Shown piece by piece: positions 306 to 22,662 of a stretch of DNA of 64,000 nucleotides. This stretch comes from an uncultured Desulfocapsaceae bacterium (GTDB taxonomy: Bacteria; Desulfobacterota; Desulfobulbia; Desulfobulbales; Desulfocapsaceae). Made by a program: the position numbers and the translations under genes. Positions within the stretch are counted from its first letter, which is position 1. Each line of letters opens with the position of its first letter. Location of the stretch: contig CAZMFP010000014.1 of assembly GCA_964565605.1 (NCBI GenBank), forward strand, positions 9,700-73,699. The letters are read 5' to 3'. The notes beneath the pieces were generated by a model. That model was not told the DNA's origin and did no database searches. It saw only the letters and a program-made list of their open reading frames with translations.

Positions 306-3300
306 ATGCCGGACACCAAAAAAATTGGATCAGTAATGATTGTTGGCGGCGGAATTACAGGCATGCAGACAGCACTGGATCTGGCCGATTCCGGATATTA
401 CGTTTATCTGGTGGAGAGGTCTGGAGCCATTGGCGGTGCCATGGCCCAGTTGGACAAGACCTTTCCCACAAATGACTGCTCGATGTGAATTATTGCGCCA
501 AAACTGGTTGAGTGCGGTCGGCACTTAAATATCGAGTTAATGACCCTGAGCGAAGTGACGGGAATAACAGGTGAAGCTGGGAATTTTCAAGTTCAGCTCA
601 AAGAACATCCACGCTATGTGGATATGGAAAAATGTATTGCCTGCGGCGAATGTGCAGCGAAATGTCCCAAAAAAGTGGACAGCGAATATGATGCGGCCAC
701 AGGTAAACGTAAAGCTATCTATGTCAAATATGCCCAGGCAGTTCCACTGAAGTATCAGATTGACAGTGATAGCTGCATCCGATTTAAAAAAGCAGGTGCC
801 TGCGGGTTTTGCGAGAAGGTATGCCCTGCCGGGGCTATCGATTTTGACCAGACCGAAAAAAACCATAACATTGAGGTTGGAGCCATTGTTCTGGCCCCCG
901 GCTTTGAACCATATGACCCTTCAGGAATAAACGGTTGGGGCTTTGGTCAATACCCCAATGTTGTAACCTCAATGCAGTTTGAGCGTCTACTTTCAGCTTC
1001 CGGGCCTACCGCAGGGCACCTGAACAGACCATCGGATGGCAAAGAAATTACCAAAGTCGCCTTTCTGCAATGTGTCGGCTCACGAGATGAGAACAAGTGC
1101 GGCAACGGATACTGCTCTTCAGTCTGCTGCATGTATGCCATCAAAGAAGCGGTGATGGCCAAAGAACATGTTTCTGGTCTTGGGACCACAATCTTCATGA
1201 TGGATATGCGGACCCACGGGAAAAACTTTGATCGATATTATCAGGAAGCCCGGGAAAAATCCGGCGTTCGTTTTATTCGTTGTCGTATTGGTGAAGTTGA
1301 GGAGCACGGTGAAAGCGGGGACTTACGGATTCATTACATTAACGATGAAGGCCGCCAGATAGAGGATTATTATGATATGGTGGTCCTGTCTGTAGGGATG
1401 CAGATACCGGAGCATGTCAAAAAGCTCAGCGATATGGCCGGAGTACGACTGACCCATGACGGATTTGCCTCAACTTCGGATTTTGCCCCGATCTCGACAT
1501 CCAAGGAAGGCATATACGCCTGTGGTGTTTTTGCGGGTCCAAAAGATATTCCCCAATCGGTGATGGAAGGTTCGGCTGCCGCGGCCGCTGTTGCTGACAA
1601 ATTGGCTCCTGCCCGTGGTACTCTCACCAAAGAGAAGACCTTTCCACCAGAACGAAATGTAGGCGAGGAAGAGCCAAATATCGGCATTTTTGTCTGTCAC
1701 TGCGGCTCAAATATAGCAGGTGTTGTCGACGTTGAAGACGTGGCTGATTATTCCAAGACACTTCCCAATGTCAGCCATGTTGAACGAAACCTGTTCAGTT
1801 GTTCACAGGATACTCAAGAACAACTTACACATACAATCAAAGAAAAGGGGCTGAATCGTGTAGTGATTGCCGCCTGCACCCCAAGGACCCACGAGCCGCT
1901 TTTTAGGGAAACGCTCAAAGCATCAGGACTCAACGAATACCTGATCGAAATGGCCAACATCAGAAATCAGAACTCCTGGGTTCACGCTGATACTCCCGCT
2001 GTTGCCACAACCAAGGCAAAAGATTTGATCCGGATGGCAGTTGCCAAAGTAGACAAACAGTCATCATTGCAGCGGGTTTCCGTACCGATTGACCAGGTTG
2101 GCCTGGTTGTCGGTGGTGGTGTCGCAGGGCTCACGGCTGCTTTAAATATGGCCCAACAGGGATTCAAGGTCCATCTTGTTGAAAAAAGCGATGTCTTAGG
2201 TGGCAATGCACTTTATCTTGGCCATACCTGGTCCGGGGAGTCGATTCAGAGCAAGACGGAGGCACTGATCGACGAAGTAACCAATAACGATAGAATCGTC
2301 ATCCATAAAAAGTCCAAAGTAACCGGTGCGGAAGGTTTTATCGGTAATTTTTCCACATCTATTTCAACCAAAAAGAAAAAATCACAAATAATCAATCACG
2401 GTATCGGCATCGTTGCCACCGGTGCCAGGGAATACAGGCCTGATGAATACGGCTACGGCAGGATTCCCTTTGTCGTTACCGGGCTAGAGTTTGACCGTCT
2501 GTTTGAGCTCAAAGAGCAGCATGTCGCTAAAGGCAAGTCCTTTGCTTTTATCCAGTGTGTTGGCTCCCGCGAGGGTGACAGAATGTACTGCTCAAAGGTC
2601 TGCTGCACTCATTCGATCCAGACGGCAATCAAACTCAAAGAAGAAGACCCGGGACGGAATATCTATATTCTTTATCGAGATATCCGAACCTATGGCCAAC
2701 GTGAAGCTCTCTACAAAAAGGCAAGATCCATAGGCATCATCTTCATTAACTATGAGTTACACGAAAAACCGAAAGTCGAGTATGAGAAAAAGCAGGTCAG
2801 AATAGAAGTGTGGGATCATGTTCTCCACCGCCCCTTACACATTCAAACCGACATGGTTATTCTGGCCTCTGCCATTGTTGCCAATCCGGATGCTGAAGAG
2901 CTGAACAAGCTCTACAAAGTCTCCCTTGACGGTGACGGCTTTTTCCAGGAAGCCCATGTCAAGCTGCGGCCAGTTGATTTTGCTACCGACGGCCTTTTTG
3001 TTGCCGGCCTGGCCCAGTACCCGAAACCGATGGAGGAATCGGTGGCTCAGGCATTGGCTGCCTCGGCCCGTGCCACAACACTGCTTTCCAGAAGCCACGT
3101 GAGCCTAGACGCTGTTAAGGCGGAACCGGATCTTGACAATTGTGACGGTTGCGCTCTTTGTCTTGATGTCTGTCCATTCAACGCCATCACTCTTGTTGAA
3201 CGTCAACCGGAAAACGAGGATGATGAAATTACAAAATACATAACCGTCAATAAGGCAAGCTGCAAAGGATGCGGTCTTTGCCAGGGAACATGCCCCAAAC

Positions 3301-3371
3301 GCGGCGTCCATATTCAGGGATTCACCATGGAGCAGATCAGCAGCCAGATCGAAGCGGCTCTCACTATCTGA
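306..3371 (+). CDS. hdrA: Large HdrA-like heterodisulfide reductase subunit A (two FAD/NAD-binding modules plus several 4Fe-4S motifs), a selenoprotein with Sec at TGA 486-488
   Basis: ORF-track pieces 306-488 and 540-3371 are in the same frame and are separated only by TGA 486-488 and an open stretch. Read-through gives ...[30 protein letters not shown]..., the conserved HdrA DCSxC(I/L)xxPK motif with Sec in place of Cys. Other motifs are GGGITG and GGGVAG dinucleotide folds and ferredoxin motifs [24 protein letters not shown] and [12 protein letters not shown]. An AGGAG RBS lies upstream of ATG 306. Confidence 0.85.
486..525 (+). promoter_or_regulatory. Sec-UGA plus SECIS-like hairpin of hdrA
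   Basis: TGA at 486-488 is followed by hairpin AGUGC-GGUCG-GCACU at 511-525. The GGUC-type apical loop is as in enterobacterial fdhF SECIS. Confidence 0.5.
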
Positions 3372-3407: not shown

Positions 3408-3824
3408 ATGAGTTTTGAACCAAAAATAATAACCTTCTGTTGCAACTGGTGCTCATATGCGGCAGCCGATCTTGCCGGCACTGCCAGGATGCAATATCCA
3501 GCCAACGTCAGGATCATCCGGGTCATGTGCTCGGGCATGGTCCATCCTGAGTTCATTGTCGATGCCTTCCGGCAGGGGGCTGATGGCGTCATGGTCATGG
3601 GCTGACACCTGGGAGAATGCCATTACCTGGACGGTAATCATAAAGCCCTGGCCAGATCAAATATGATCGACGAACTCCTGGAAGATTTTGGTTTTGATAA
3701 CGAGAGGTTTTCAATTTCATGGGTCTCTTCCGCCGAACCTGACAAGTTCGTCCAGGCGGTAACAAAAATGACCGAACATGTCAGGAAACTGGGCCCGACA
3801 GACAACCAGGCCCAAGCTGCTTAA
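3408..3824 (+). CDS. mvhD: MvhD-like [2Fe-2S] hydrogenase/Hdr connector subunit, a selenoprotein with Sec at TGA 3603-3605
   Basis: The ORF track stops at 3605. Read-through in the same frame gives ...[58 protein letters not shown]... up to TAA 3822-3824. This matches the MvhD G-C-H-x-G-x-C-H-Y motif with Sec for the first Cys. Confidence 0.85.
3603..3638 (+). promoter_or_regulatory. Sec-UGA plus SECIS-like hairpin of mvhD
   Basis: TGA at 3603-3605 is followed by hairpin AUUACC-UGGAC-GGUAAU at 3622-3638. Confidence 0.5.
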
Positions 3825-3834
3825 AGGAGAAACT

Positions 3835-4782
3835 ATGGGAGTAACAACTGCATTAGAATGGCTGAGCTCATGTTCCGGCTGTGAAATTGCTGTCTTGAAT
3901 ATTGGTGAAGCCCTGGTTCCTATCCTCACCGAAAAGCTGGACATTGTCCATGCCCCGGTGATCATGGACCATAAATATTATGGACAATGCGGTGATGAAG
4001 GTGAAGAACTGCAAATTCCTGAAGCGGTCGTCGGTATTGTTACCGGCGGCGTTACCAATGAAGAACACCTTGAGGTTTTGCAGGAAATGCGCAAAAAGTG
4101 CAAAGTACTCATCGCCCTTGGTTCCTGTGCCACTCAAGGAGGCATCCCTGCCCTGATGAATGGCCAGGATTCCCAGGAAAGCTTTAAGGCAATTTATCAT
4201 ACCCCTTCCACTGACCCCGGCGCCTCACTGCCTGACCAGGTGGTCCCCAAACTCCTGGAGCGAACATACGCCCTCGATGAAAAGGTTGAGATCGACCTGC
4301 AGCTTGCCGGGTGCCCGCCCAATCCTGCTCATATTGCTGAAGTCATCATCTCCTTACTGGAAGACCGTGATCCGGTATTGCCGACCAAAAGCGTCTGCGA
4401 CACCTGCCCCACACTGCGTAAGGGAAAAGGTGAAGTACAGCAGGTTCGCCGCTTTGTTGAGAATGCCGACTTTGACCCGGAAAAGCCCATCAGTGAAATG
4501 CGATGCTTACTTGAACAGGGTTTTTTATGCATGGGACCGGTAACTGCTGCCGGTTGCCAAAAACGTGGTGTACCCACCTGCATCGAAGCCCGCGTTCCAT
4601 GTCGTGGCTGTTTCGGATCAGTCCGTCCCAAGGGGAGCCAACTGCTTGATATGATGAACGCTCTGGCCAGTAACGGAATAGATTACACATCCGTTGTCGA
4701 CAGAAAGTCGATCCAGAGGTTCTGTGGAGCCCACGGCAATCTGAGGCCAATTAAGAAAAAGATTGTGAAGGAGGAAAGCTAA
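3835..4782 (+). CDS. mvhG: [NiFe]-hydrogenase small subunit (MvhG type, no Tat signal)
   Basis: ATG 3835 follows an AAAGGAGA RBS. The sequence MGVTTALEWLSSCSGCEIAVLNIGE... carries the N-terminal CxGC cluster motif of hydrogenase small subunits and C-terminal Cys clusters. The gene lies between mvhD and the large subunit. The ORF-track start at 3778 overlaps mvhD and is unlikely. Confidence 0.85.
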   Translation: MGVTTALEWLSSCSGCEIAVLNIGEALVPILTEKLDIVHAPVIMDHKYYGQCGDEGEELQIPEAVVGIVTGGVTNEEHLEVLQEMRKKCKVLIALGSCATQGGIPALMNGQDSQESFKAIYHTPSTDPGASLPDQVVPKLLERTYALDEKVEIDLQLAGCPPNPAHIAEVIISLLEDRDPVLPTKSVCDTCPTLRKGKGEVQQVRRFVENADFDPEKPISEMRCLLEQGFLCMGPVTAAGCQKRGVPTCIEARVPCRGCFGSVRPKGSQLLDMMNALASNGIDYTSVVDRKSIQRFCGAHGNLRPIKKKIVKEES

Positions 4783-4783
4783 A

Positions 4784-6232
4784 ATGGGTAAGGTGTTAAA
4801 CATACAACCGGTAACCCGAATTGAGGGACACGCTCGTATCTCCATCCATCTTGACGATGACGGCAATGTAGACGAAGCTTATATGTCGCTGATGTCTCTG
4901 CGAGGATTTGAAAAATTTATCGAGGGCAGACCGGCCGAAGAAGTCCCTCGGATAGTAACCCGTATTTGCGGCATCTGTCCATGGATGCATCATACAGCCT
5001 CCAACAAGGCGGTTGATGGCTGTTTTGGCGTAACCCCCACTCCGACAGGTCACAGGCTCAGAGAACTTTTACAGGTAATGGCTCATATTAATGACAAGAT
5101 CCTCCACTTTTTCTTCCTGGCAGCACCTGACTTTGTCCTTGGGCCGGATGCCGATTATTCAGTTAGAAATGTTATTGGTGTAGTCAAAGCGGCTCCTGAA
5201 CTGGCGACCCAGGTTGTGAAAATGCGGCAGCTTGGCCAGATGATGCTGGACCGCTTTGCCGGCAAGGCCATCCATCCCATTGCCGCAGTGACCGGTGGTT
5301 TTTCCAAACCGATGCTGGAGTCCGAACGTGTTGAGCTTCTGAAAGACACAGAGACCTTACTTGACTTCAGTCGCTATGCTCTCGACTACGCAAAAGAAAA
5401 CGTCTTTAGTAAATATATCGACGTTATTGGAGAACTGGGTGTCATCAACACCGGTTTTTTAGGCACTGTTGACCGCGAGGATGGTTCATTCAGGATTTAT
5501 GACGGCATACAGCGGCTGATGAAACCGGATGGCAGCTATATCGATTTTGAGGGAGAGGAGTATCTTAACTACATTGGAGAACACGTAGAACCATGGAGTT
5601 ATGGCAAGATGCCGTATGCCAAATCATGGAACGAAGGATTTTCCCTTGACCTGGATTCCCCTAAAGGCATTTACAGGGCAAATACCCTAGCCCGTATCAA
5701 TGTTTGTGACCAGATGGCCACACCAAAGGCACAGGAAGCTCTTGAAGAATTTCGCGCGGCTTTCGGCCGTCCGGCACAGGCCACCCTGCTCTATCATTAT
5801 GCCCGCTTAATCGAGTTGGTTTATGCCTGCGAACGGACCATCGAACTGCTTAACTGGGACGGTATAACCGACACCAATGTCCGGGCCAAGGTTGAACCCA
5901 AGGCCGGTCGGGGTGTTGGAGTCGTCGAAGCCCCGAGGGGTACTCTTATTCACGATTACACAACAGATGAAAACGGCTGTATCAAGGATGCCAACCTGAT
6001 CGTGGGGACAACCCACAATATTGGGCCGATGAACATGAGTGTCAAGCAGGCGGCCAACCTGTTGATCAAAGACGGAAAATATGACGAGGCAATTTTAAAC
6101 AAGGTGGAGATGGCAGTCCGGGCCTACGACCCCTGAATGTCCTGCGCCACTCACCGCCTGGATGGCGGCATCCCCCTTGCTCTTGACATTGTTGATGCAA
6201 AAGGGAAACTGATTGAAACGTTATCAAACTGA
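4784..6232 (+). CDS. mvhA: [NiFeSe]-hydrogenase large subunit (MvhA type), Sec at TGA 6134-6136
   Basis: The N-terminal RIEGHARI and RICGICPWMHH motifs are present. The ORF track ends at ...VRAYDP followed by TGA. Read-through gives DP-U-MSCATHRLDGGIPLALDIVDAKGKLIETLSN and then TGA 6230-6232. DPUxxCxxH is the C-terminal Ni-binding motif with Sec as the Ni ligand. Confidence 0.9.
6134..6168 (+). promoter_or_regulatory. Sec-UGA plus SECIS-like hairpin of mvhA
   Basis: TGA at 6134-6136 is followed by hairpin CCGCC-UGGAU-GGCGG at 6154-6168. Confidence 0.45.
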
Positions 6233-16561: not shown

Positions 16562-17452
16562 ATGAAAAAAATGTTTCTTATTTTTCCACTCCAATTGATT
16601 TCTATTCTTCTATTTGCTGGTGCCGCCCTGGGTGCACCGATTGATATTGTAGTCTCCATTGCTCCACAGAAGTGGCTGGTCAGCCAAGTTGGAGGAACTA
16701 TGATCTCAGTCAACACTCTCATTGGCAAGGGTCAGGATCCACACTCTTTTCAACCCACACCGAGACAGATCGCCCATCTCTCAAAAGCCCGATTCTATTT
16801 TACCATTGATATGGCTTTTGAAAAAACCATATCAAACAGAATCAAGCACCTGAAAACAGGACCTCAAGTAGTTGATATTTCACAAAACATCCACAAGATC
16901 CAAATGGATCGACATACTCATCTTGAAGAAGATCACCACCATGCTGACCATAAAGCTCTTCAGCCCCTTGACCCGCATATCTGGCTTTCACCCGTCATCC
17001 TCAAACAGATAGCAACCACAATCTCTGATGTACTCATCGAAGAAGATCCGGACAACCGTGAACAGTATAAAAACAACCTGAAAAAACTCAGTAACAAGCT
17101 TGAGAATATCCATGCAGCAATAAAAAAGAAGCTTGCCCCTTTTACTGGTTCATCTTTTTATGTCTTTCATCCATCATTTGGTTATTTTGCCCAAACCTAT
17201 CACCTCCACCAGGAAGCAATTGAAGTGGAGGGGAAGTCACCACCCCCAAGGCAACTGCAACGACTTATTAAAAAAGCAAAAGATCAAGGAGCCAAAATCA
17301 TTTTCATCCAACCCCAATTTGACCCAAAAAGTGCAACAGCCATAGCCTCAGCCATTGATGGCCATGTTATTCCACTGGACCCACTTGCTGAAGATATTGA
17401 AAATAATCTCCTGTTGATGGCGGATAAAATCGCAGGAGCACTCAGCAAGTAG
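16562..17452 (+). CDS. znuA: Zinc/manganese ABC transporter substrate-binding protein (ZnuA/TroA cluster 9) with a His-rich loop
   Basis: A signal peptide is present, along with the DPHxW motif (LDPHIWLSP), the His-rich loop DRHTHLEEDHHHADH and FHPSFGYF. No znuBC genes are adjacent. Confidence 0.75.
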   Translation: MKKMFLIFPLQLISILLFAGAALGAPIDIVVSIAPQKWLVSQVGGTMISVNTLIGKGQDPHSFQPTPRQIAHLSKARFYFTIDMAFEKTISNRIKHLKTGPQVVDISQNIHKIQMDRHTHLEEDHHHADHKALQPLDPHIWLSPVILKQIATTISDVLIEEDPDNREQYKNNLKKLSNKLENIHAAIKKKLAPFTGSSFYVFHPSFGYFAQTYHLHQEAIEVEGKSPPPRQLQRLIKKAKDQGAKIIFIQPQFDPKSATAIASAIDGHVIPLDPLAEDIENNLLLMADKIAGALSK

Positions 17453-17480: not shown

Positions 17481-17810
17481 TCACATGATATCGCCATGGG
17501 GTTCCTGCAGGAGACGAACAGTTTGTAGAACAACACCATTTCTTTGAAGAACAGTTAAAAGCTGTTCGAGACCTGTCTGGTCATCATCAAATGTAATCAC
17601 GAGACGTTTTCGACCAAGATCCGGATAGACGTCAACAACCCCTTCCAACAGCTGAACAGCCTTTTCAATTTCAGGCAACAAGGTATCGCTTAATGCCGGA
17701 ATATGGAAAGAGTAGACATACTCACCGGCAATTACAGGTAATTTTGTACAATTTATTATGACGATGAGCAGGCAGATCAACAGGATATTTTTTCCGCCTC
17801 GTCCCATCAT
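17481..17810 (-). CDS. Hypothetical exported protein (HMA-like beta-alpha-beta fold guess, no CxxC)
   Basis: A 109-aa ORF with a signal-like N-terminus. I recognise no family. Confidence 0.35.
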   Translation of the reverse strand: MMGRGGKNILLICLLIVIINCTKLPVIAGEYVYSFHIPALSDTLLPEIEKAVQLLEGVVDVYPDLGRKRLVITFDDDQTGLEQLLTVLQRNGVVLQTVRLLQEPHGDIM

Positions 17811-17900: not shown

Positions 17901-18118
17901 TACTGTTTGTGGTTCGCATCAGAGCTACTGGCATGAAGTAATGTGCAATACCTACGAAATACTATTAATTTCAGACAGTATCACAATTTAATAACAGATT
18001 CATTCTCTTCTCTATTTCCCTTGACACACCCTTGGGTAATGTCCTAGAAGTAAGGCATAATAGCAGTCTAATTTTGTTTGAGGTCGAAGTAATCTGTTCA
18101 CATTCTACGGAGGCAAAG

Positions 18119-18532
18119 ATGACAAAAAAAGAGTTAAAGAAGTTTCTTGCCGGCCTAAGCGTCGCAAGCCTGCTCAGCGTTGGCGGAGTCGGTATGCACG
18201 GCGCCCAAGCCGGTCCCAGTGGATGAGGTGACAAACCCGGCACAGGTGGTGCCGACTCAAAAAAAGAAGCTTCAGGCAGTGGCTGAGGCGGTGGATCCGG
18301 TGCAGGTGGCACCGACCAACCGACCAGCGAAGAAGAGGCCAAGAAAAAAGATCCCGGAACAAGTGGCTGAGGTGGTGGATCCGGTGCAGGTAGCACCGAT
18401 CAACCAACCAGTGAAGAAGAGGCCAAGAAAAAAGATCCCGGAACAAGTGGCTGAGGCGGCGGATCCGGTGCAGGTAGCACCGATTCTAAAAAGTCTGAGG
18501 ACGACAAGTCCGGGAAAAGTGGCTGAAGCTGA
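18119..18532 (+). CDS. Poly-selenocysteine, tandem-core SbtA-like RiPP precursor (137 aa if all five in-frame UGA are read as Sec)
   Basis: ATG 18119 has a GGAGG RBS. The signal-like leader is MTKKELKKFLAGLSVASLLSVGGVGMHGAQA. Five in-frame TGAs follow at 18224, 18284, 18368, 18452 and 18524, all in an S-G-U-G(G) context. My translation is GPSG-U-GDKPGTGGADSKKEASGSG-U-GGGSGAGGTDQPTSEEEAKKKDPGTSG-U-GGGSGAGSTDQPTSEEEAKKKDPGTSG-U-GGGSGAGSTDSKKSEDDKSGKSG-U-S-stop (TGA 18530-18532). Each UGA has a SECIS-type hairpin 11 nt downstream. Six of 7 substitutions between repeat units are synonymous in this frame. The ORF track shows only 18032-18226. Confidence 0.75.
18224..18254 (+). promoter_or_regulatory. 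Sec-UGA 1 plus SECIS-like hairpin
   Basis: TGA 18224-18226 is followed by an 11-nt spacer and then CGGCAC-AGGUG-GUGCCG at 18238-18254. Confidence 0.65.
18284..18314 (+). promoter_or_regulatory. Sec-UGA 2 plus SECIS-like hairpin
   Basis: TGA 18284-18286 is followed by an 11-nt spacer and then CGGUGC-AGGUG-GCACCG at 18298-18314. Confidence 0.65.
18368..18398 (+). promoter_or_regulatory. Sec-UGA 3 plus SECIS-like hairpin
   Basis: TGA 18368-18370 is followed by an 11-nt spacer and then CGGUGC-AGGUA-GCACCG at 18382-18398. Confidence 0.65.
18452..18482 (+). promoter_or_regulatory. Sec-UGA 4 plus SECIS-like hairpin
   Basis: TGA 18452-18454 is followed by an 11-nt spacer and then CGGUGC-AGGUA-GCACCG at 18466-18482. 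Confidence 0.65.
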
Positions 18533-18554
18533 TTTTCCCGTGCAGTTTGCACGA
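18524..18554 (+). promoter_or_regulatory. Sec-UGA 5 plus SECIS-like hairpin (hairpin lies past the stop codon)
   Basis: TGA 18524-18526 is followed by an 11-nt spacer (which includes the terminal AGC TGA) and then CGUGC-AGUUU-GCACG at 18539-18553. The register is the same as for the other four. Confidence 0.5.
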
Positions 18555-18568
18555 TATTTGTAATTCAT

Positions 18569-18606
18569 AAAAGCCGATGGTTAAAAGACCATCGGCTTTT
18601 ATTTTT
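18569..18606 (+). terminator. Intrinsic terminator/attenuator between the precursor and the maturase gene
   Basis: aaagccgatgg-ttaaaaga-ccatcggcttt is followed by tattttt. Confidence 0.75.
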
Positions 18607-18623
18607 CCCTTTCAGCCGATCCT

Positions 18624-20213
18624 ATGAATCATTCTAAGAAAACATCGCAAGGCCACAATTTTCAAACAAGATTTCCATCCTCCTGGAGTCTTGTTCAGCA
18701 GGTTAATAACGACCTGGCAGACTTGGTGACAACCAAAGAAGAGTTTCACCAACTGTGTCGAGACAACCCTTCAGTCGTCGATACATTTCCTTTTCTTCCT
18801 GAGTTGTTTTCAGTTGAACAATCCATTCACAAGCTTCAATCAACAACACCTGGAATAGAGATACCGACTTCAGAAATCATCGTCAATCCTCAGCTTGAAC
18901 TCATCACTGTTCAATATTCCGGCCTGGCAAACCTGCTCAATGATAAGCCATGCGTCCCGACCAGGAAGTTGTCTCATATCTGCATTTTTCGAACTCCTGG
19001 TGAAAAGGATATACAGGTTGTTGAAGCTCACCCCCATGATCTTCTTGCTCTTAAAATTGTCTCAGAAAGTCTCGACTACAGGCAAGTTTCCAGGGAGGCC
19101 GGAACCACCCTTGGCCAGATCGATGATATTGTTTACAACGCCATTCAAAAAGGGATTTTGATCAGTCCCTCTTCACGAATTAGAAGACCAGAAGAATTTA
19201 AAGCGGGTTGTGTTACCGACAGAAGTTTTTTCTCATCCAGAGTCTTTACCCTGCAATGGCACATTACCCAGCAGTGTGACCTGCACTGCCGCCACTGTTA
19301 TGACAGGAGTAAGAGACAGGAAATGACTCTTGAGCAGGGAACACATGTACTCGATGAGTTGTATGACTTCTGCCTGAAACAGTTTGTCTACGGTCAGGTG
19401 ACTTTCACCGGCGGGAACCCGCTTCTCTACCCTGATTTTCTAGAATTATATCGCCAGGCTACAGACCGGGGCTTTCTCACAGCCATTCTCGGCAACCCTA
19501 CCTCACGTGCTCAACTTGAAGAAATCCTCCATATACAAAAACCGCAATACTACCAGGTCAGCCTGGAAGGGATGGAGAGTCATAATGATTATATCAGGGG
19601 AAAAAATCATTTTAACAGGGTGATTAAGTTCTTACAGCTGCTCAAAGAACTCGATATCTACTCAATGGTGATGCTGACCTTGACAAGAGATAATCAGGAT
19701 CAGGTCCTGGAGTTGGCCGAGTTCCTAAGGGATAAAGTCGATCGATTTAATTTTAACCGGCTCTCAATGGTCGGTGAAGGGGCGGCCCTTACCTCTGTTG
19801 ATGTTGATGGATATTCTAACTTTTTAAGAAACTACAAAAAAGCTGCTGAAAACAACCCTGCCATGGGTCTGAAAGACAATTTTTTCAACCTGCTCCAGTA
19901 TCAGGACAATGCAACCCAATTTTATGGCGGTTGTGCCGGTCACGGTTGCGGTGCTGCCTTCAATTTTGTTTCACTCCTACCCGATGGTCGAGTGGATGCC
20001 TGCCGCAAATTTGACTCCCCCATGGGCAACATCTTCAAGGAGGATTTCTTAAAAATTTATCACGGTAAACAGGGTGAGCTATACCGAAATGGACCATCGA
20101 ACTGTAACGATTGCGATATTCGTCCAGTTTGCCGAGGATGCATGGCTGTTTCTTTCGGTATGGGAAAAGATGTTTTCAAAGAGATAGACCCGTATTGTTT
20201 TATGAAGAAGTGA
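18624..20213 (+). CDS. Radical SAM/SPASM peptide maturase, SbtM-like (thio/selenooxazole-forming family candidate)
   Basis: A 529-aa ORF. An N-terminal domain of about 200 aa could be a peptide-recognition domain. The radical SAM motif is QQCDLHCRHCY. The C-terminal SPASM-like Cys cluster reads CAGHGCGAAFNFVSLLPDGRVDACRKF...CNDCDIRPVCRGCMAV. It lies immediately downstream of the Sec-rich precursor. Confidence 0.8.
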   Translation: MNHSKKTSQGHNFQTRFPSSWSLVQQVNNDLADLVTTKEEFHQLCRDNPSVVDTFPFLPELFSVEQSIHKLQSTTPGIEIPTSEIIVNPQLELITVQYSGLANLLNDKPCVPTRKLSHICIFRTPGEKDIQVVEAHPHDLLALKIVSESLDYRQVSREAGTTLGQIDDIVYNAIQKGILISPSSRIRRPEEFKAGCVTDRSFFSSRVFTLQWHITQQCDLHCRHCYDRSKRQEMTLEQGTHVLDELYDFCLKQFVYGQVTFTGGNPLLYPDFLELYRQATDRGFLTAILGNPTSRAQLEEILHIQKPQYYQVSLEGMESHNDYIRGKNHFNRVIKFLQLLKELDIYSMVMLTLTRDNQDQVLELAEFLRDKVDRFNFNRLSMVGEGAALTSVDVDGYSNFLRNYKKAAENNPAMGLKDNFFNLLQYQDNATQFYGGCAGHGCGAAFNFVSLLPDGRVDACRKFDSPMGNIFKEDFLKIYHGKQGELYRNGPSNCNDCDIRPVCRGCMAVSFGMGKDVFKEIDPYCFMKK

Positions 20214-20255: not shown

Positions 20256-20723
20256 TTATTGAGAAGAAGCCCGAACGGCTTTAACATGGCCCTTATACGC
20301 TGGTGTAAATTCACGGATGATGCAACAGCCACCACTGGCATCATCCCACGATCCAACGACAATCTCTCCGAGTTGGTTACGTACCCAGAATTTACCGCTT
20401 AGATTAAAAGCTGATTTTTTGCGGCTTTTCTCTCCAAAATCAAAAGTGAAATAGACATTATGAAATTCAGCAAGAGTTGGTAGCCGCCAACCGCTGTTCC
20501 CGGAAAGGTTAAGTTTGTTTATATATTTTTGGGCCTCATCCGCACTGTAAACAAGCCTGCTTTTATGCTGCTGCCAGACAAGGTTCTGGGCGGTATCAAG
20601 AAAAGAGGCGTCTCCTGTGACAATGAGTCTGGTTGTAGAGTTGGTGGAACAACCAGATGTTAGGGCAAAGGAGAATATGAAAAGAAGACAGTATGAAAAA
20701 CGCATTGAGAATAGAAATGCCAT
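20256..20723 (-). CDS. DUF1566 (Lcl C-terminal-like) lipoprotein
   Basis: The lipobox is FALTSGC. The GWRLPTLAEF motif is characteristic of DUF1566. Confidence 0.55.
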   Translation of the reverse strand: MAFLFSMRFSYCLLFIFSFALTSGCSTNSTTRLIVTGDASFLDTAQNLVWQQHKSRLVYSADEAQKYINKLNLSGNSGWRLPTLAEFHNVYFTFDFGEKSRKKSAFNLSGKFWVRNQLGEIVVGSWDDASGGCCIIREFTPAYKGHVKAVRASSQ

Positions 20724-21003: not shown

Positions 21004-22662
21004 ATGGACTTTTGGCGCAACTATAAAAAACTGTTCGGTGACGTTACTCCTCCCGTATTGACACTTATGATCATTGCGGCTCTTATGGTCATGGAGACGG
21101 CTATTTCACTTGTCTCACCCTGGATTGCCGGTCGATTTACCGAGACGCTTTTATCCCCCTCACCGTCTTTATCTTTTTCATCTCAACAGCTTCTTATGAT
21201 CTGGCTGGTTATTTTAGCAATTAAAGGAATCTTGAACTTTTTTAACAGTTATTATACCGGAAAGATCTCCCAGAAAATGCTGACAGACATGCGGATAAAA
21301 CTCTACAATCATCTGCAGATGCTGCCGATAAGTTACTACCATGATAAGAAACATGGTAAAATACTGGCTTTTCTCACCAATGACGCAGCTATTATCTCCA
21401 CATTTATTACCGGCACCCTGGTCAGGCTGATTCCAATTATCATCACGATCTGCGGCGCTCTTATCTGTATCTATTTTATTTCTCCAATGGCCACTCTGTT
21501 TGCGGCTTTACTCATTCCTGTCTTTTATATCATCACCAAGCTTCTCGGACGCTCTATCCGGGGCCTGTCGCAATCGATGATTGAAGAATATTCCAAAACT
21601 CTTGCCATTGCCGATGAAAACCTGTCAACTCTGCCTCTTATCAAATCGTATACCAGAGAAAATCAAGAATCACTGAAATTTTCCAGGAGCAGTCATCGGC
21701 TCTTGAGGCAGACCATCAAATATCTAAAAATACAATCCTTTCTTGCACCGCTTACAAAATTTCTAGCAACAGTTATCATATTCATCATTCTCTGGTTTCT
21801 CTCCAACCAACTAGTCGAAGGAGTGATCAGCTCGGCTGACATGGTCTCCCTGATCCTGTATGGAATGCTGATTACCCAACCGATCAGCGGTCTCGCCAGC
21901 CTGTATGGACAACTTCAACATACCATTGGCGCCTCTAAGCGGCTCTATCAACTTTTCTCTATCATTCCGGAAAACAAATATAGTGGAGCGACCCTGGAAC
22001 ACGTCCGCGGAGATATAGAATTTTGCAATATCAATTTCAGCTATCCCGGTCGAGACGCTATATTTTCACAACTTAATTTAAAAATTACCGCTGGAGAAAC
22101 CATCGCCATAACCGGTAAAAACGGAGCCGGAAAATCAACTCTGGTCCATCTACTCATGCGATTCATCAATCCCGGTAGCGGTCGGATACTCATTGACAAG
22201 GAAAATATCCGTAAGTGTTCTATCTTGAGCCTTAGGCAGCAGATCGGCATGGTTCAACAGCAGGTTTTTTTGCAAAATTCAACTGTTAAGGAAAATATTC
22301 TTTTTGGTAAACCAACGGCTACTACTGAGGAAATCGAGGAAGCTGCCAGAAGAGCTCATGCCAGTGATTTTATTAATAAACTGCCGGATGGCTATGATAC
22401 ATTAATCGGAGACCAGGGAATCAAACTGTCCGGTGGCCAGAAACAGCGACTGGCTCTTGCCCGAGTCATGCTCAAAGATCCACCAGTGATGATACTTGAT
22501 GAAGCTACCGCCATGTTTGACCCGACAGGAGAAACAGAATTTATCCAAGAATGCAAAAAGCTGTTGAAAGGTAAAACCGTCATCCTCATCACCCACAGAC
22601 CAGGAAGTCTAGCTTTGGCCGATACAGTCTATACGCTTGAAAACGGCCGGCTTAGAAAATAA
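21004..22662 (+). CDS. ABC exporter, fused permease/ATPase (MsbA/ABCB type)
   Basis: The N-terminal domain has 6 TM segments. Motifs present are Walker A GKNGAGKST, signature LSGGQKQR and Walker B MILDEAT. Confidence 0.85.
   Translation: MDFWRNYKKLFGDVTPPVLTLMIIAALMVMETAISLVSPWIAGRFTETLLSPSPSLSFSSQQLLMIWLVILAIKGILNFFNSYYTGKISQKMLTDMRIKLYNHLQMLPISYYHDKKHGKILAFLTNDAAIISTFITGTLVRLIPIIITICGALICIYFISPMATLFAALLIPVFYIITKLLGRSIRGLSQSMIEEYSKTLAIADENLSTLPLIKSYTRENQESLKFSRSSHRLLRQTIKYLKIQSFLAPLTKFLATVIIFIILWFLSNQLVEGVISSADMVSLILYGMLITQPISGLASLYGQLQHTIGASKRLYQLFSIIPENKYSGATLEHVRGDIEFCNINFSYPGRDAIFSQLNLKITAGETIAITGKNGAGKSTLVHLLMRFINPGSGRILIDKENIRKCSILSLRQQIGMVQQQVFLQNSTVKENILFGKPTATTEEIEEAARRAHASDFINKLPDGYDTLIGDQGIKLSGGQKQRLALARVMLKDPPVMILDEATAMFDPTGETEFIQECKKLLKGKTVILITHRPGSLALADTVYTLENGRLRK

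Follow-up and report, generated by a model that had tools for sequence, protein, structure and literature searches.

A predicted selenooxazole precursor gene of an uncultured Desulfocapsaceae bacterium, with a separate SECIS-type hairpin after each of its five in-frame UGAs

Introduction

Decoding of UGA as selenocysteine (Sec, U) in bacteria requires one selenocysteine insertion sequence (SECIS) per UGA, and this element lies inside the open reading frame (ORF), right after the codon that it serves. The local requirement is usually seen as the reason why bacterial selenoproteins carry a single Sec, and rarely two or three. Here we describe sbtA, a gene in which five in-frame UGA codons are each followed, at a constant distance, by a short hairpin. 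The gene occupies positions 18119 to 18532 of a 64,000-nt stretch of DNA from an uncultured Desulfocapsaceae bacterium (contig CAZMFP010000014.1 of assembly GCA_964565605.1, positions 9,700 to 73,699). This whole stretch is called the window below, and all coordinates are window positions. We conclude, with a probability of roughly 0.85, that the gene encodes the precursor of a thio(seleno)oxazole-containing ribosomally synthesized and post-translationally modified peptide (RiPP), and that its five UGAs would each be recoded by a bacterial SECIS of their own.

The closest described system is the SbtA/SbtM pair (TIGR04081/TIGR04082; Haft and Basu, 2011; Lewis et al., 2021). As later accounts relate, Haft predicted the pair in 2011 and placed a SECIS right behind the UGA (PMC9204691, PMC11002830), and a later annotation, quoted in one of them, gave SbtA ‘at least two’ Sec residues (PMC9204691). 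SbtM takes four hydrogens from Gly-Cys or Gly-Sec to yield a thio(seleno)oxazole (PMC9204691, PMC11002830), a chemistry known only for a Geobacter enzyme acting on synthetic peptides (PMC9204691). A review from 2026 lists the family as ‘selenobacteriocin, TIGR04081, SGUG, 2 Sec’ and gives prokaryotic selenoproteins one Sec, at most two to three (PMC13188914). Neither the gene family nor the presence of Sec and a SECIS in it is therefore new in itself: all were already predicted in 2011 and stand in the NCBI annotation models.

Three further descriptions serve as points of comparison. The bacterial SECIS (bSECIS) consensus has a loop of 3-9 nt, a stem of 4-16 bp, 16-37 nt from UGA to loop and a minimum free energy (MFE) of -7.5 kcal/mol or lower, with G at loop position 1 or 2 or at both, and in most cases a G or U next to it (PMC13188914). 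The SECIS of E. coli fdhF has an architecture of 11 + 17 nt, in which the bulged U17 and the loop nucleotides G23 and U24 are contacts of the elongation factor SelB (PMC8659212). In eukaryotic selenoprotein P (SELENOP), as outlined in the sources cited, two SECIS elements in the 3' untranslated region (UTR) serve all UGAs (PMC5727441, PMC8659212).

Results

sbtA contains five in-frame UGA codons

We read the region letter by letter and translated the ORF with UGA read through, which gave the following features:

18119 to 18532, plus strand: sbtA, predicted thio(seleno)oxazole RiPP precursor with a TIGR04081 N-terminus, directly upstream of sbtM
18224 to 18226, plus strand: predicted Sec codon 1, UGA, context PSG-U-G
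18284 to 18286, plus strand: predicted Sec codon 2, UGA, context GSG-U-G
18368 to 18370, plus strand: predicted Sec codon 3, UGA, context TSG-U-G
18452 to 18454, plus strand: predicted Sec codon 4, UGA, context TSG-U-G
18524 to 18526, plus strand: predicted Sec codon 5, UGA, context KSG-U-S, penultimate residue
18530 to 18532, plus strand: sixth in-frame UGA, one codon past Sec codon 5, taken as the stop

Translation from the ATG at 18119, which has GGAGG 8 nt upstream, gives a product of 137 residues, five of them Sec if the TGAs at 18224, 18284, 18368, 18452 and 18524 are so read. The N-terminus resembles a signal peptide (MTKKELKKFLAGLSVASLLSVGGVGMHGAQA...), and residues 1-25 match the NCBIfam model TIGR04081 (SbtA) at 34.4 bits, against a cutoff of 30.5. 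The hairpin-linked UGAs are spaced 60, 84, 84 and 72 nt apart, all in frame with the ATG, and their contexts (PSGUG, GSGUG, TSGUG, TSGUG and KSGUS) conform to the SG-U-G type motif of the SbtA family. Leader, maturase, SG-U-G motif and downstream SECIS all match the described SbtA/SbtM system. That system is credited in the literature with two Sec residues, whereas the window member would have five.

The UGA at 18530 is taken as the true stop because it stands only ~11-12 nt ahead of the nearest hairpin loop, where the bSECIS consensus asks for at least 16 nt. Since only Ser and this stop follow the last Sec, the fifth SECIS would lie in the 3' UTR. An apparent UGA stop one or two codons past the last Sec (U-S-UGA, U-G-UGA or U-S-G-UGA), too near the hairpin for recoding, occurs at window position 18530 and also in the relatives L001-L003, L007, L013, L015, L017, L030, L037, L063, L073, L075, L079 and L080 (L-numbers are our locus labels for the relatives surveyed below).

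Each UGA is followed by a SECIS-type hairpin

Exactly 11 nt separate each of the five TGAs from a 17-nt hairpin, the loop of which begins 17 nt past the UGA:

18238 to 18254, plus strand: SECIS-type hairpin 1, CGGCAC-AGGUG-GUGCCG, coding for part of PGTGGAD
18298 to 18314, plus strand: SECIS-type hairpin 2, CGGUGC-AGGUG-GCACCG
18382 to 18398, plus strand: SECIS-type hairpin 3, CGGUGC-AGGUA-GCACCG, lower helix extended
18466 to 18482, plus strand: SECIS-type hairpin 4, CGGUGC-AGGUA-GCACCG, the same 17-mer as hairpin 3
18538 to 18554, plus strand: SECIS-type hairpin 5, non-coding and 3' of the stop, with the core CGUGC-AGUUU-GCACG at 18539-18553

An earlier note on this DNA had proposed these five 17-mers as SECIS elements at a fixed 11-nt spacing, and its coordinates and sequences proved exact to the base. 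Its further observation that the fifth hairpin lies past the stop codon, in non-coding sequence, also stands, as does the compensated stem change that it saw between copy 1 and copies 2-4: a C-G/A-U pair of base pairs is replaced by U-A/G-C, a doubly compensatory swap that alters the encoded peptide from GTGGA to GAGGT. The two strands of the window together contain 2717 TGAs; this geometry is present at 31 of them, the five sbtA sites included, which amounts to ~1% of the other TGAs.

We folded the 17-mers and 45-nt segments with ViennaRNA and expressed the energies as z values against dinucleotide shuffles. The 17-mers of hairpins 1, 2, 3 and 5 fold at -9.1, -9.1, -9.2 and -7.8 kcal/mol; their z values lie between -2.7 and -5.0 (-2.97 for hairpin 1, -4.04 for hairpin 3 and -4.97 for hairpin 5). 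The 17-mer of copy 4 is identical to that of copy 3, from which it takes the value of -9.2, and was folded only within its 45-nt segment. In all five 45-nt segments the MFE fold contains the hairpin; the segments of hairpins 2, 3 and 4 reach -20.7 (z -2.65), -20.9 (z -4.25) and -15.8 kcal/mol (z -2.26). The lower helices of copies 2 and 3 begin just past the UGA, that of hairpin 2 pairing the GGCGGUGG spacer with downstream ACCAACCGACC. An alternative drawing of hairpin 5 has 6 bp closing a 3-nt loop.

All five hairpins fall within the bSECIS consensus on each of its four counts. Their stems have 5-6 bp and their loops 5 nt; the loops read AGGUG, AGGUG, AGGUA, AGGUA and AGUUU, with G among the first two positions; the distance from UGA to loop is 17 nt at 5/5 sites; and the energies given above lie below -7.5 kcal/mol. 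The comparison with fdhF is closer in some respects than in others. The fdhF element to which the earlier note likened the hairpins, TGA + 11 nt + GGTTGCAGGTCTGCACC, is present in the fdhF of 5419/5426 E. coli genomes, as the note gave it. The sbtA hairpins share with it the 11-nt spacer, the 17-nt hairpin, a ..UGC-AGGU-..GCA.. core, the G and U in the loop and, in copies 2 and 3, a lower helix that starts just past the UGA. The likeness that the note drew to the fdhF architecture does not extend to the bulged U: the sbtA stems are perfectly paired, with 6 bp closing a 5-nt loop, whereas fdhF has a GGUC tetraloop closed by A-U. There is also one element per ORF in fdhF, and five in sbtA. Selenoprotein P offers a parallel of another kind, a secreted polypeptide (secretion being predicted for SbtA) with many Sec residues from serial UGAs; in place of its 3'-UTR elements, sbtA has a local hairpin for each UGA, as bacterial SelB requires.

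The arrangement recurs across the SbtA family

We assembled 93 loci with an SbtM homologue, 13 from species-representative genomes and 80 from metagenomes, and recognized 72 SbtA genes among them by their leader, namely 71 homologues and the window's own. The layout of the window gene recurs in these 71 homologues. All 72 genes have between one and six in-frame UGAs after Gly, Ser or Ala, the number of predicted Sec residues being 1 in 3 genes, 2 in 28, 3 in 31, 4 in 7, 5 in 1 and 6 in 2. Only one other sequence, found at L069/L072, exceeds the window gene.

With a hairpin defined as -6 kcal/mol or better and a loop start 16-26 nt past the UGA, one is present at 84% of 187 unique Gly/Ser-UGA sites, against 4.1% of 6000 background TGAs from the same loci. 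Conversely, 166/179 such hairpins within sbtA genes have a UGA 16-26 nt away. The note's expectation that homologues would keep the hairpin and its register is thus borne out, although the fixed 11-nt spacing is a property of the window gene and not of the family: across the family the loop begins 17, 20 or 23 nt past the UGA where the hairpin is coding and 17-25 nt past it where the hairpin follows the stop. The family occupies a narrow part of the distance range (17-25 nt) allowed by the bSECIS consensus and has a conserved GC/GC stem top; it shows no other substantive difference from that consensus.

The family hairpins have 25 distinct inner stems, every one of them complementary. In an ungapped alignment of 117 unique family hairpins, loop position 2 is G in 117/117. 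Doubly changed cells number 184, against 47.5±8.9 in shuffles, and the covariation score is 0.681, against 0.219 for shuffled alignments and at most 0.17 in slid registers. The percentage of paired positions in this alignment is circular, as the hairpins were chosen for pairing; this touches neither the covariation measures nor the comparison with background TGAs. A covariance model built from the SbtA hairpins, as the note had suggested, scores hairpins 1-5 at 20.7, 24.6, 25.3, 25.3 and 22.2 bits on the plus strand and at only 9-10 bits on the minus strand. This strand asymmetry, together with the G·U pairs that occur in family hairpins, indicates a sense-strand RNA; a DNA-level palindrome as the explanation of the hairpins was rejected on the strand asymmetry.

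Several individual loci depart from the one-to-one pattern. Pairs of SG-UGA codons 9-15 nt apart with a single hairpin occur in L011 (2989/2998 and 3760/3769), L067 (1851/1866) and L069/L072 (2121/2133). In these, the second UGA stands 17-21 nt ahead of the loop and the first ~30-32 nt ahead of it, and because both distances are inside the 16-37 nt range of the model, one hairpin may serve both codons. In L010 (3731-3775) the post-stop hairpin, AAGAUGC-CGGGU-GCAUCUU, is directly followed by a T-run and may double as a terminator.

Cys at an internal site, which would be a natural control for hairpin loss, was found in none of the 72 SbtA genes. At the last site, L019 (2251-2268) and L023 (1010-1027) have Cys (TGT) followed by TGA, with no SECIS-like hairpin with a loop G in range; in these two related sequences, a replacement of Sec by Cys at the C-terminal site is possible. 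L027 (~1208) and L033 (~2203) have Gly codons (GGA and GGC) where relatives have UGA (L034 398) and keep the hairpin GGCGC-AGUUA-GCGCU; loss of the Sec site looks recent there, which makes the two loci uninformative as controls.

Predicted Sec sites, tandem duplication and proposed decoding

Part of sbtA is a tandem repeat:

18278 to 18484, plus strand: 84-bp tandem repeat, 2.5 copies, 94% matches, Tandem Repeats Finder score 372

Each repeat unit holds one predicted Sec codon together with the SECIS and the linker that go with it (SG-U-GGGSGAGSTDQPTSEEEAKKKDPGT). In L001 and L002, the closest relatives, one such 84-nt copy is missing; the window gene gained its extra predicted Sec site by tandem duplication of a unit of UGA, SECIS and linker. 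The SbtA of L069/L072 (gene at 2016), which has the highest count seen, is also made of a repeated unit (ASG-U-SGSxEGAGSAE...); within ~123 residues there are seven in-frame SG-UGA codons, and a hairpin supports six predicted Sec codons.

From established knowledge of bacterial Sec decoding, we infer the following course of events. Each UGA would be served by a GC-rich hairpin of 5-6 bp, the apical loop of which (A-G-G/U-U-N) begins 17 nt past the codon, and SelB·GTP·Sec-tRNA(Sec) would dock on the apical loop and upper stem. With the UGA in the A site, the hairpin would stand at the mRNA entrance of the ribosome, where the tethered SelB could deliver Sec-tRNA in competition with release factor 2 (RF2). 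The ribosome would then melt the hairpin and, at sites 1-4, translate it as [G/S]-[A/T]-G-[G/S]-[T/A], so that the peptide after each Sec would be dictated by the RNA element. After translation, SbtM would turn each Gly-Sec into a selenooxazole. New Sec sites would arise by tandem duplication of the 84-nt unit.

The hairpins could act as SECIS elements and have a second role besides, such as pausing the ribosome or grading the product by selenium supply. Scarce Sec-tRNA might then yield nested truncated peptides with 0-4 Sec residues, or the 84-nt units might be separate cores of a multi-core RiPP. Five serial recodings do imply heavy loss unless the efficiency at each site is high, the repeat unit does resemble a core-plus-linker module, and the spread from one to six Sec residues across the family would suit such a role. 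It would be an addition to recoding by individual SECIS elements rather than an alternative to it, and we consider it improbable.

Constraint at the RNA and peptide levels

On a rival view, the hairpins have no decoding role and are a by-product: palindromic codon strings would come about through tandem duplication and the composition of a repeat peptide rich in Gly, Ala, Ser and Thr, or through the structure of the DNA repeat. Copies 2-4 are indeed copies of a tandem repeat, the encoded pentapeptides are of low complexity (GAGGT or SAGSA, for example), and the other reading frames across the region are open as well. We re-encoded the hairpin peptides with synonymous codons weighted by window codon usage. 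The best hairpin averages -8.25 kcal/mol as observed and -1.60 kcal/mol in the re-encodings, and at 94/116 coding sites no more than 5% of re-encodings fold as well; for window sites 1-4 the fraction is 0.015, 0.07, 0.02 and 0.01. The same type of hairpin also stands in sequence that encodes nothing. The hairpin after the last Sec is always beyond the stop codon, and it is present in all homologues (L019 and L023, with Cys at the last site, have none that is SECIS-like), which argues that the constraint acts on the RNA and not on the peptide. Together with the tie between hairpin and UGA, the strand-specific signal and the use of G·U pairs, these results largely refute the by-product explanation, which we regard as very unlikely.

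Where a hairpin is translated, its register is strict. Coding hairpins keep a single codon phase in 105/105 cases, with the loop start 17, 20 or 23 nt past the UGA, and the 53 post-stop hairpins occur in every phase, at 17-25 nt. The coding hairpin reads as [G/S]-[A/T]-[G/V]-[G/S]-[T/A], its first codon being the reverse complement of its fifth (GGU/ACC, AGC/GCU, GGC/GCC), and changes in the stem go along with changes in the encoded amino acids. In this sense the peptide segment ‘is’ the SECIS, as the earlier note put it. Between the window and L001 and L002, both hairpins compared, hairpin 1 among them, are 100% identical, against 11-12 differences in the surrounding 62 nt. Synonymous and non-synonymous differences past the first UGA are roughly balanced in the same comparison, and for that reason we rejected these counts as proof of translation.

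sbtM, the terminator and the reading of UGA as stop

Downstream of sbtA lie its predicted maturase gene and a terminator:

18567 to 18612, plus strand: intrinsic terminator, 16-bp stem (18567-18602) and T-run, separating sbtA and sbtM
18624 to 20213, plus strand: sbtM, predicted radical S-adenosylmethionine (SAM)/SPASM maturase converting Gly-Cys/Sec to thio(seleno)oxazole, beginning 92 nt past sbtA

The sbtM product matches TIGR04082 (SbtM; NCBIfam) at 648.4 bits against a cutoff of 350, and Pfam adds Radical_SAM and SPASM domains. The strength of the terminator suggests that the sbtA precursor is transcribed in excess over the SbtM maturase.

The UGAs could also be ordinary stops, in which case sbtA would give a product of 35 residues, and the hairpins would be 3'-UTR elements of stability, attenuation or processing that regulate sbtM. 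UGA is a normal stop in the source genome, gene callers do not read through it, a search of a protein collection with the SbtA peptide (U changed to C) returned no match and no full-length SbtA relative, and there are terminator-like features at the 3' end of the gene. Against such a reading stand the in-frame spacing of five hairpin-linked UGAs, the codon phase kept by every coding hairpin of the family and the recurrence at each UGA of the SG-U-G motif that SbtM modifies, and the 35-residue product would stop just short of the residue on which the maturase acts. The internal hairpins lack T-runs, on which ground we rejected them as terminators, and the real terminator is separate. We think it very unlikely, to the same degree as the by-product explanation, that the UGAs are ordinary stops.

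Sec use and neighbouring genes elsewhere in the window

Recoding of the sbtA UGAs presupposes a genome that decodes Sec, and the window holds two further selenoprotein genes:

306 to 3371, plus strand: HdrA-like heterodisulfide reductase subunit, in-frame TGA 486-488 at the NDCSM-U-I position
511 to 525, plus strand: HdrA hairpin, AGUGC-GGUCG-GCACU, beginning 22 nt downstream of that TGA
3778 to 4782, plus strand: [NiFeSe] hydrogenase small subunit
4784 to 6232, plus strand: [NiFeSe] hydrogenase large subunit, DP-U-MSCATH through TGA 6134-6136 (DP-U-xxCxxH motif), terminated by another TGA, 6230
~17 nt past the predicted Sec codon at 6134, plus strand: hydrogenase hairpin, CCGCC-UGGAU-GGCGG

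Both halves of the HdrA-like protein, on either side of TGA 486-488, match HdrA2. The next-best match of the SbtA covariance model in the window, after sbtA itself, is the HdrA SECIS (508-528, 18 bits). These genes indicate that the source genome decodes Sec. UGA is otherwise a normal stop, ending 9/30 long ORFs of the window, and we rejected global reassignment on this count. With a suppressor tRNA or a reassigned code, the sbtA UGAs, which have Gly-rich contexts, could stand for Gly, Trp or Cys; this reading is effectively refuted by these TGA-terminated ORFs, by the HdrA and hydrogenase UGAs at exactly the known Sec positions and by the SECIS-type hairpins, which it leaves unexplained.

Four further genes flank sbtAM:

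16562 to 17452, plus strand: ZnuA-like metal-binding protein, beside sbtAM
17481 to 17810, minus strand: small protein with a borderline HMA domain (24.7 bits, just below the Pfam cutoff of 24.8)
20256 to 20723, minus strand: Lcl_C-domain protein (34.6 bits, just below the cutoff of 34.9)
21004 to 22662, plus strand: MsbA-like ATP-binding cassette (ABC) exporter, beside sbtAM

Only L001 and L002, the closest relatives, share the ZnuA-like, HMA, Lcl_C and ABC-transporter neighbours, and the conserved unit is therefore sbtA and sbtM alone. No metallophore or export context for sbtAM emerged.

Discussion

That sbtA is a thio(seleno)oxazole precursor gene with five UGAs, each probably recoded by its own SECIS, best accounts for the covarying, phase-locked hairpins and for the place of the gene in the SbtA family. 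Several observations weigh against it. Because copies 2-4 are recent tandem duplicates, the earlier note's five SECIS copies are five sites, but only ~3 independent instances of the hairpin. The number five is itself uncorroborated in other assemblies: L095, L096 and L097, independent short-read contigs aligned from window ~18427, are 100% identical to the window over the 3' end of sbtA and sbtM, and all three begin at one point inside the 84-bp repeat, at which short-read assemblies break off. The sbtA stems lack the bulged U17 that is essential for E. coli SelB (PMC8659212), so the hairpins are not strictly of the fdhF type. Rfam gave no SECIS family, either for the whole window at its gathering threshold or for 18050-18700 with E values as high as 10, the sole matches being weak small-RNA ones caused by the terminator. 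The balance of synonymous and non-synonymous differences implies that purifying selection on the peptide past the first UGA is weak. The window lacks selA and selB as well as selC and selD, and a tRNA scan for selC found no tRNA gene in it. Finally, recoding in E. coli has an efficiency of ~1-3% per site (PMC8659212), and at such a rate a full-length product with five Sec residues would be vanishingly rare. We infer that either the recoding efficiency is much higher than that of E. coli, or truncated SbtA products accumulate too.

Three things go beyond the literature cited here. The first is five predicted Sec residues in one SbtA, where two are given for the family and at most two to three for prokaryotes; the second is growth in the number of Sec sites by tandem duplication of an 84-nt unit of Sec codon and SECIS; the third is the phase-locking of coding hairpins, with encoded amino acids that covary with the stem.

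Taken further, these features would make SbtA genes modular poly-Sec precursors that grow by duplicating the 84-nt ‘UGA + SECIS + linker’ unit. The RNA, and not peptide function, would dictate the five residues after each Sec, with the loop GGU or GUG read as Gly or Val; all five UGAs, and elsewhere six, would be decoded efficiently; and in L011, L067 and L069 the UGAs that lie 9-15 nt from each other would share a single hairpin. We put this fuller proposal forward tentatively, as somewhat less than an even bet when taken as a whole. If it is true, SbtA proteins would surpass all known bacterial polypeptides in Sec content, with more than the two to three residues of the 2026 review, and the recoding efficiency per site in these Desulfobacterota would be far above that of E. 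coli.

For the SbtA family, the constraint of a local SECIS appears to have been met repeatedly by means of a duplicable unit, a UGA with a hairpin that codes for a tolerant Gly/Ala/Ser/Thr linker. The family supplies ~120 natural variants of a minimal 17-nt SECIS, with spacings of 17, 20 or 23 nt, a loop G that never varies and a conserved GC/GC stem top, a set that amounts to design information for engineering multi-Sec proteins. A rule also follows from it for the annotation of SbtA genes, at present cut at ~35 residues by gene callers. The natural product of SbtM may carry up to five or six selenooxazoles, which bears on work on the function of that product.

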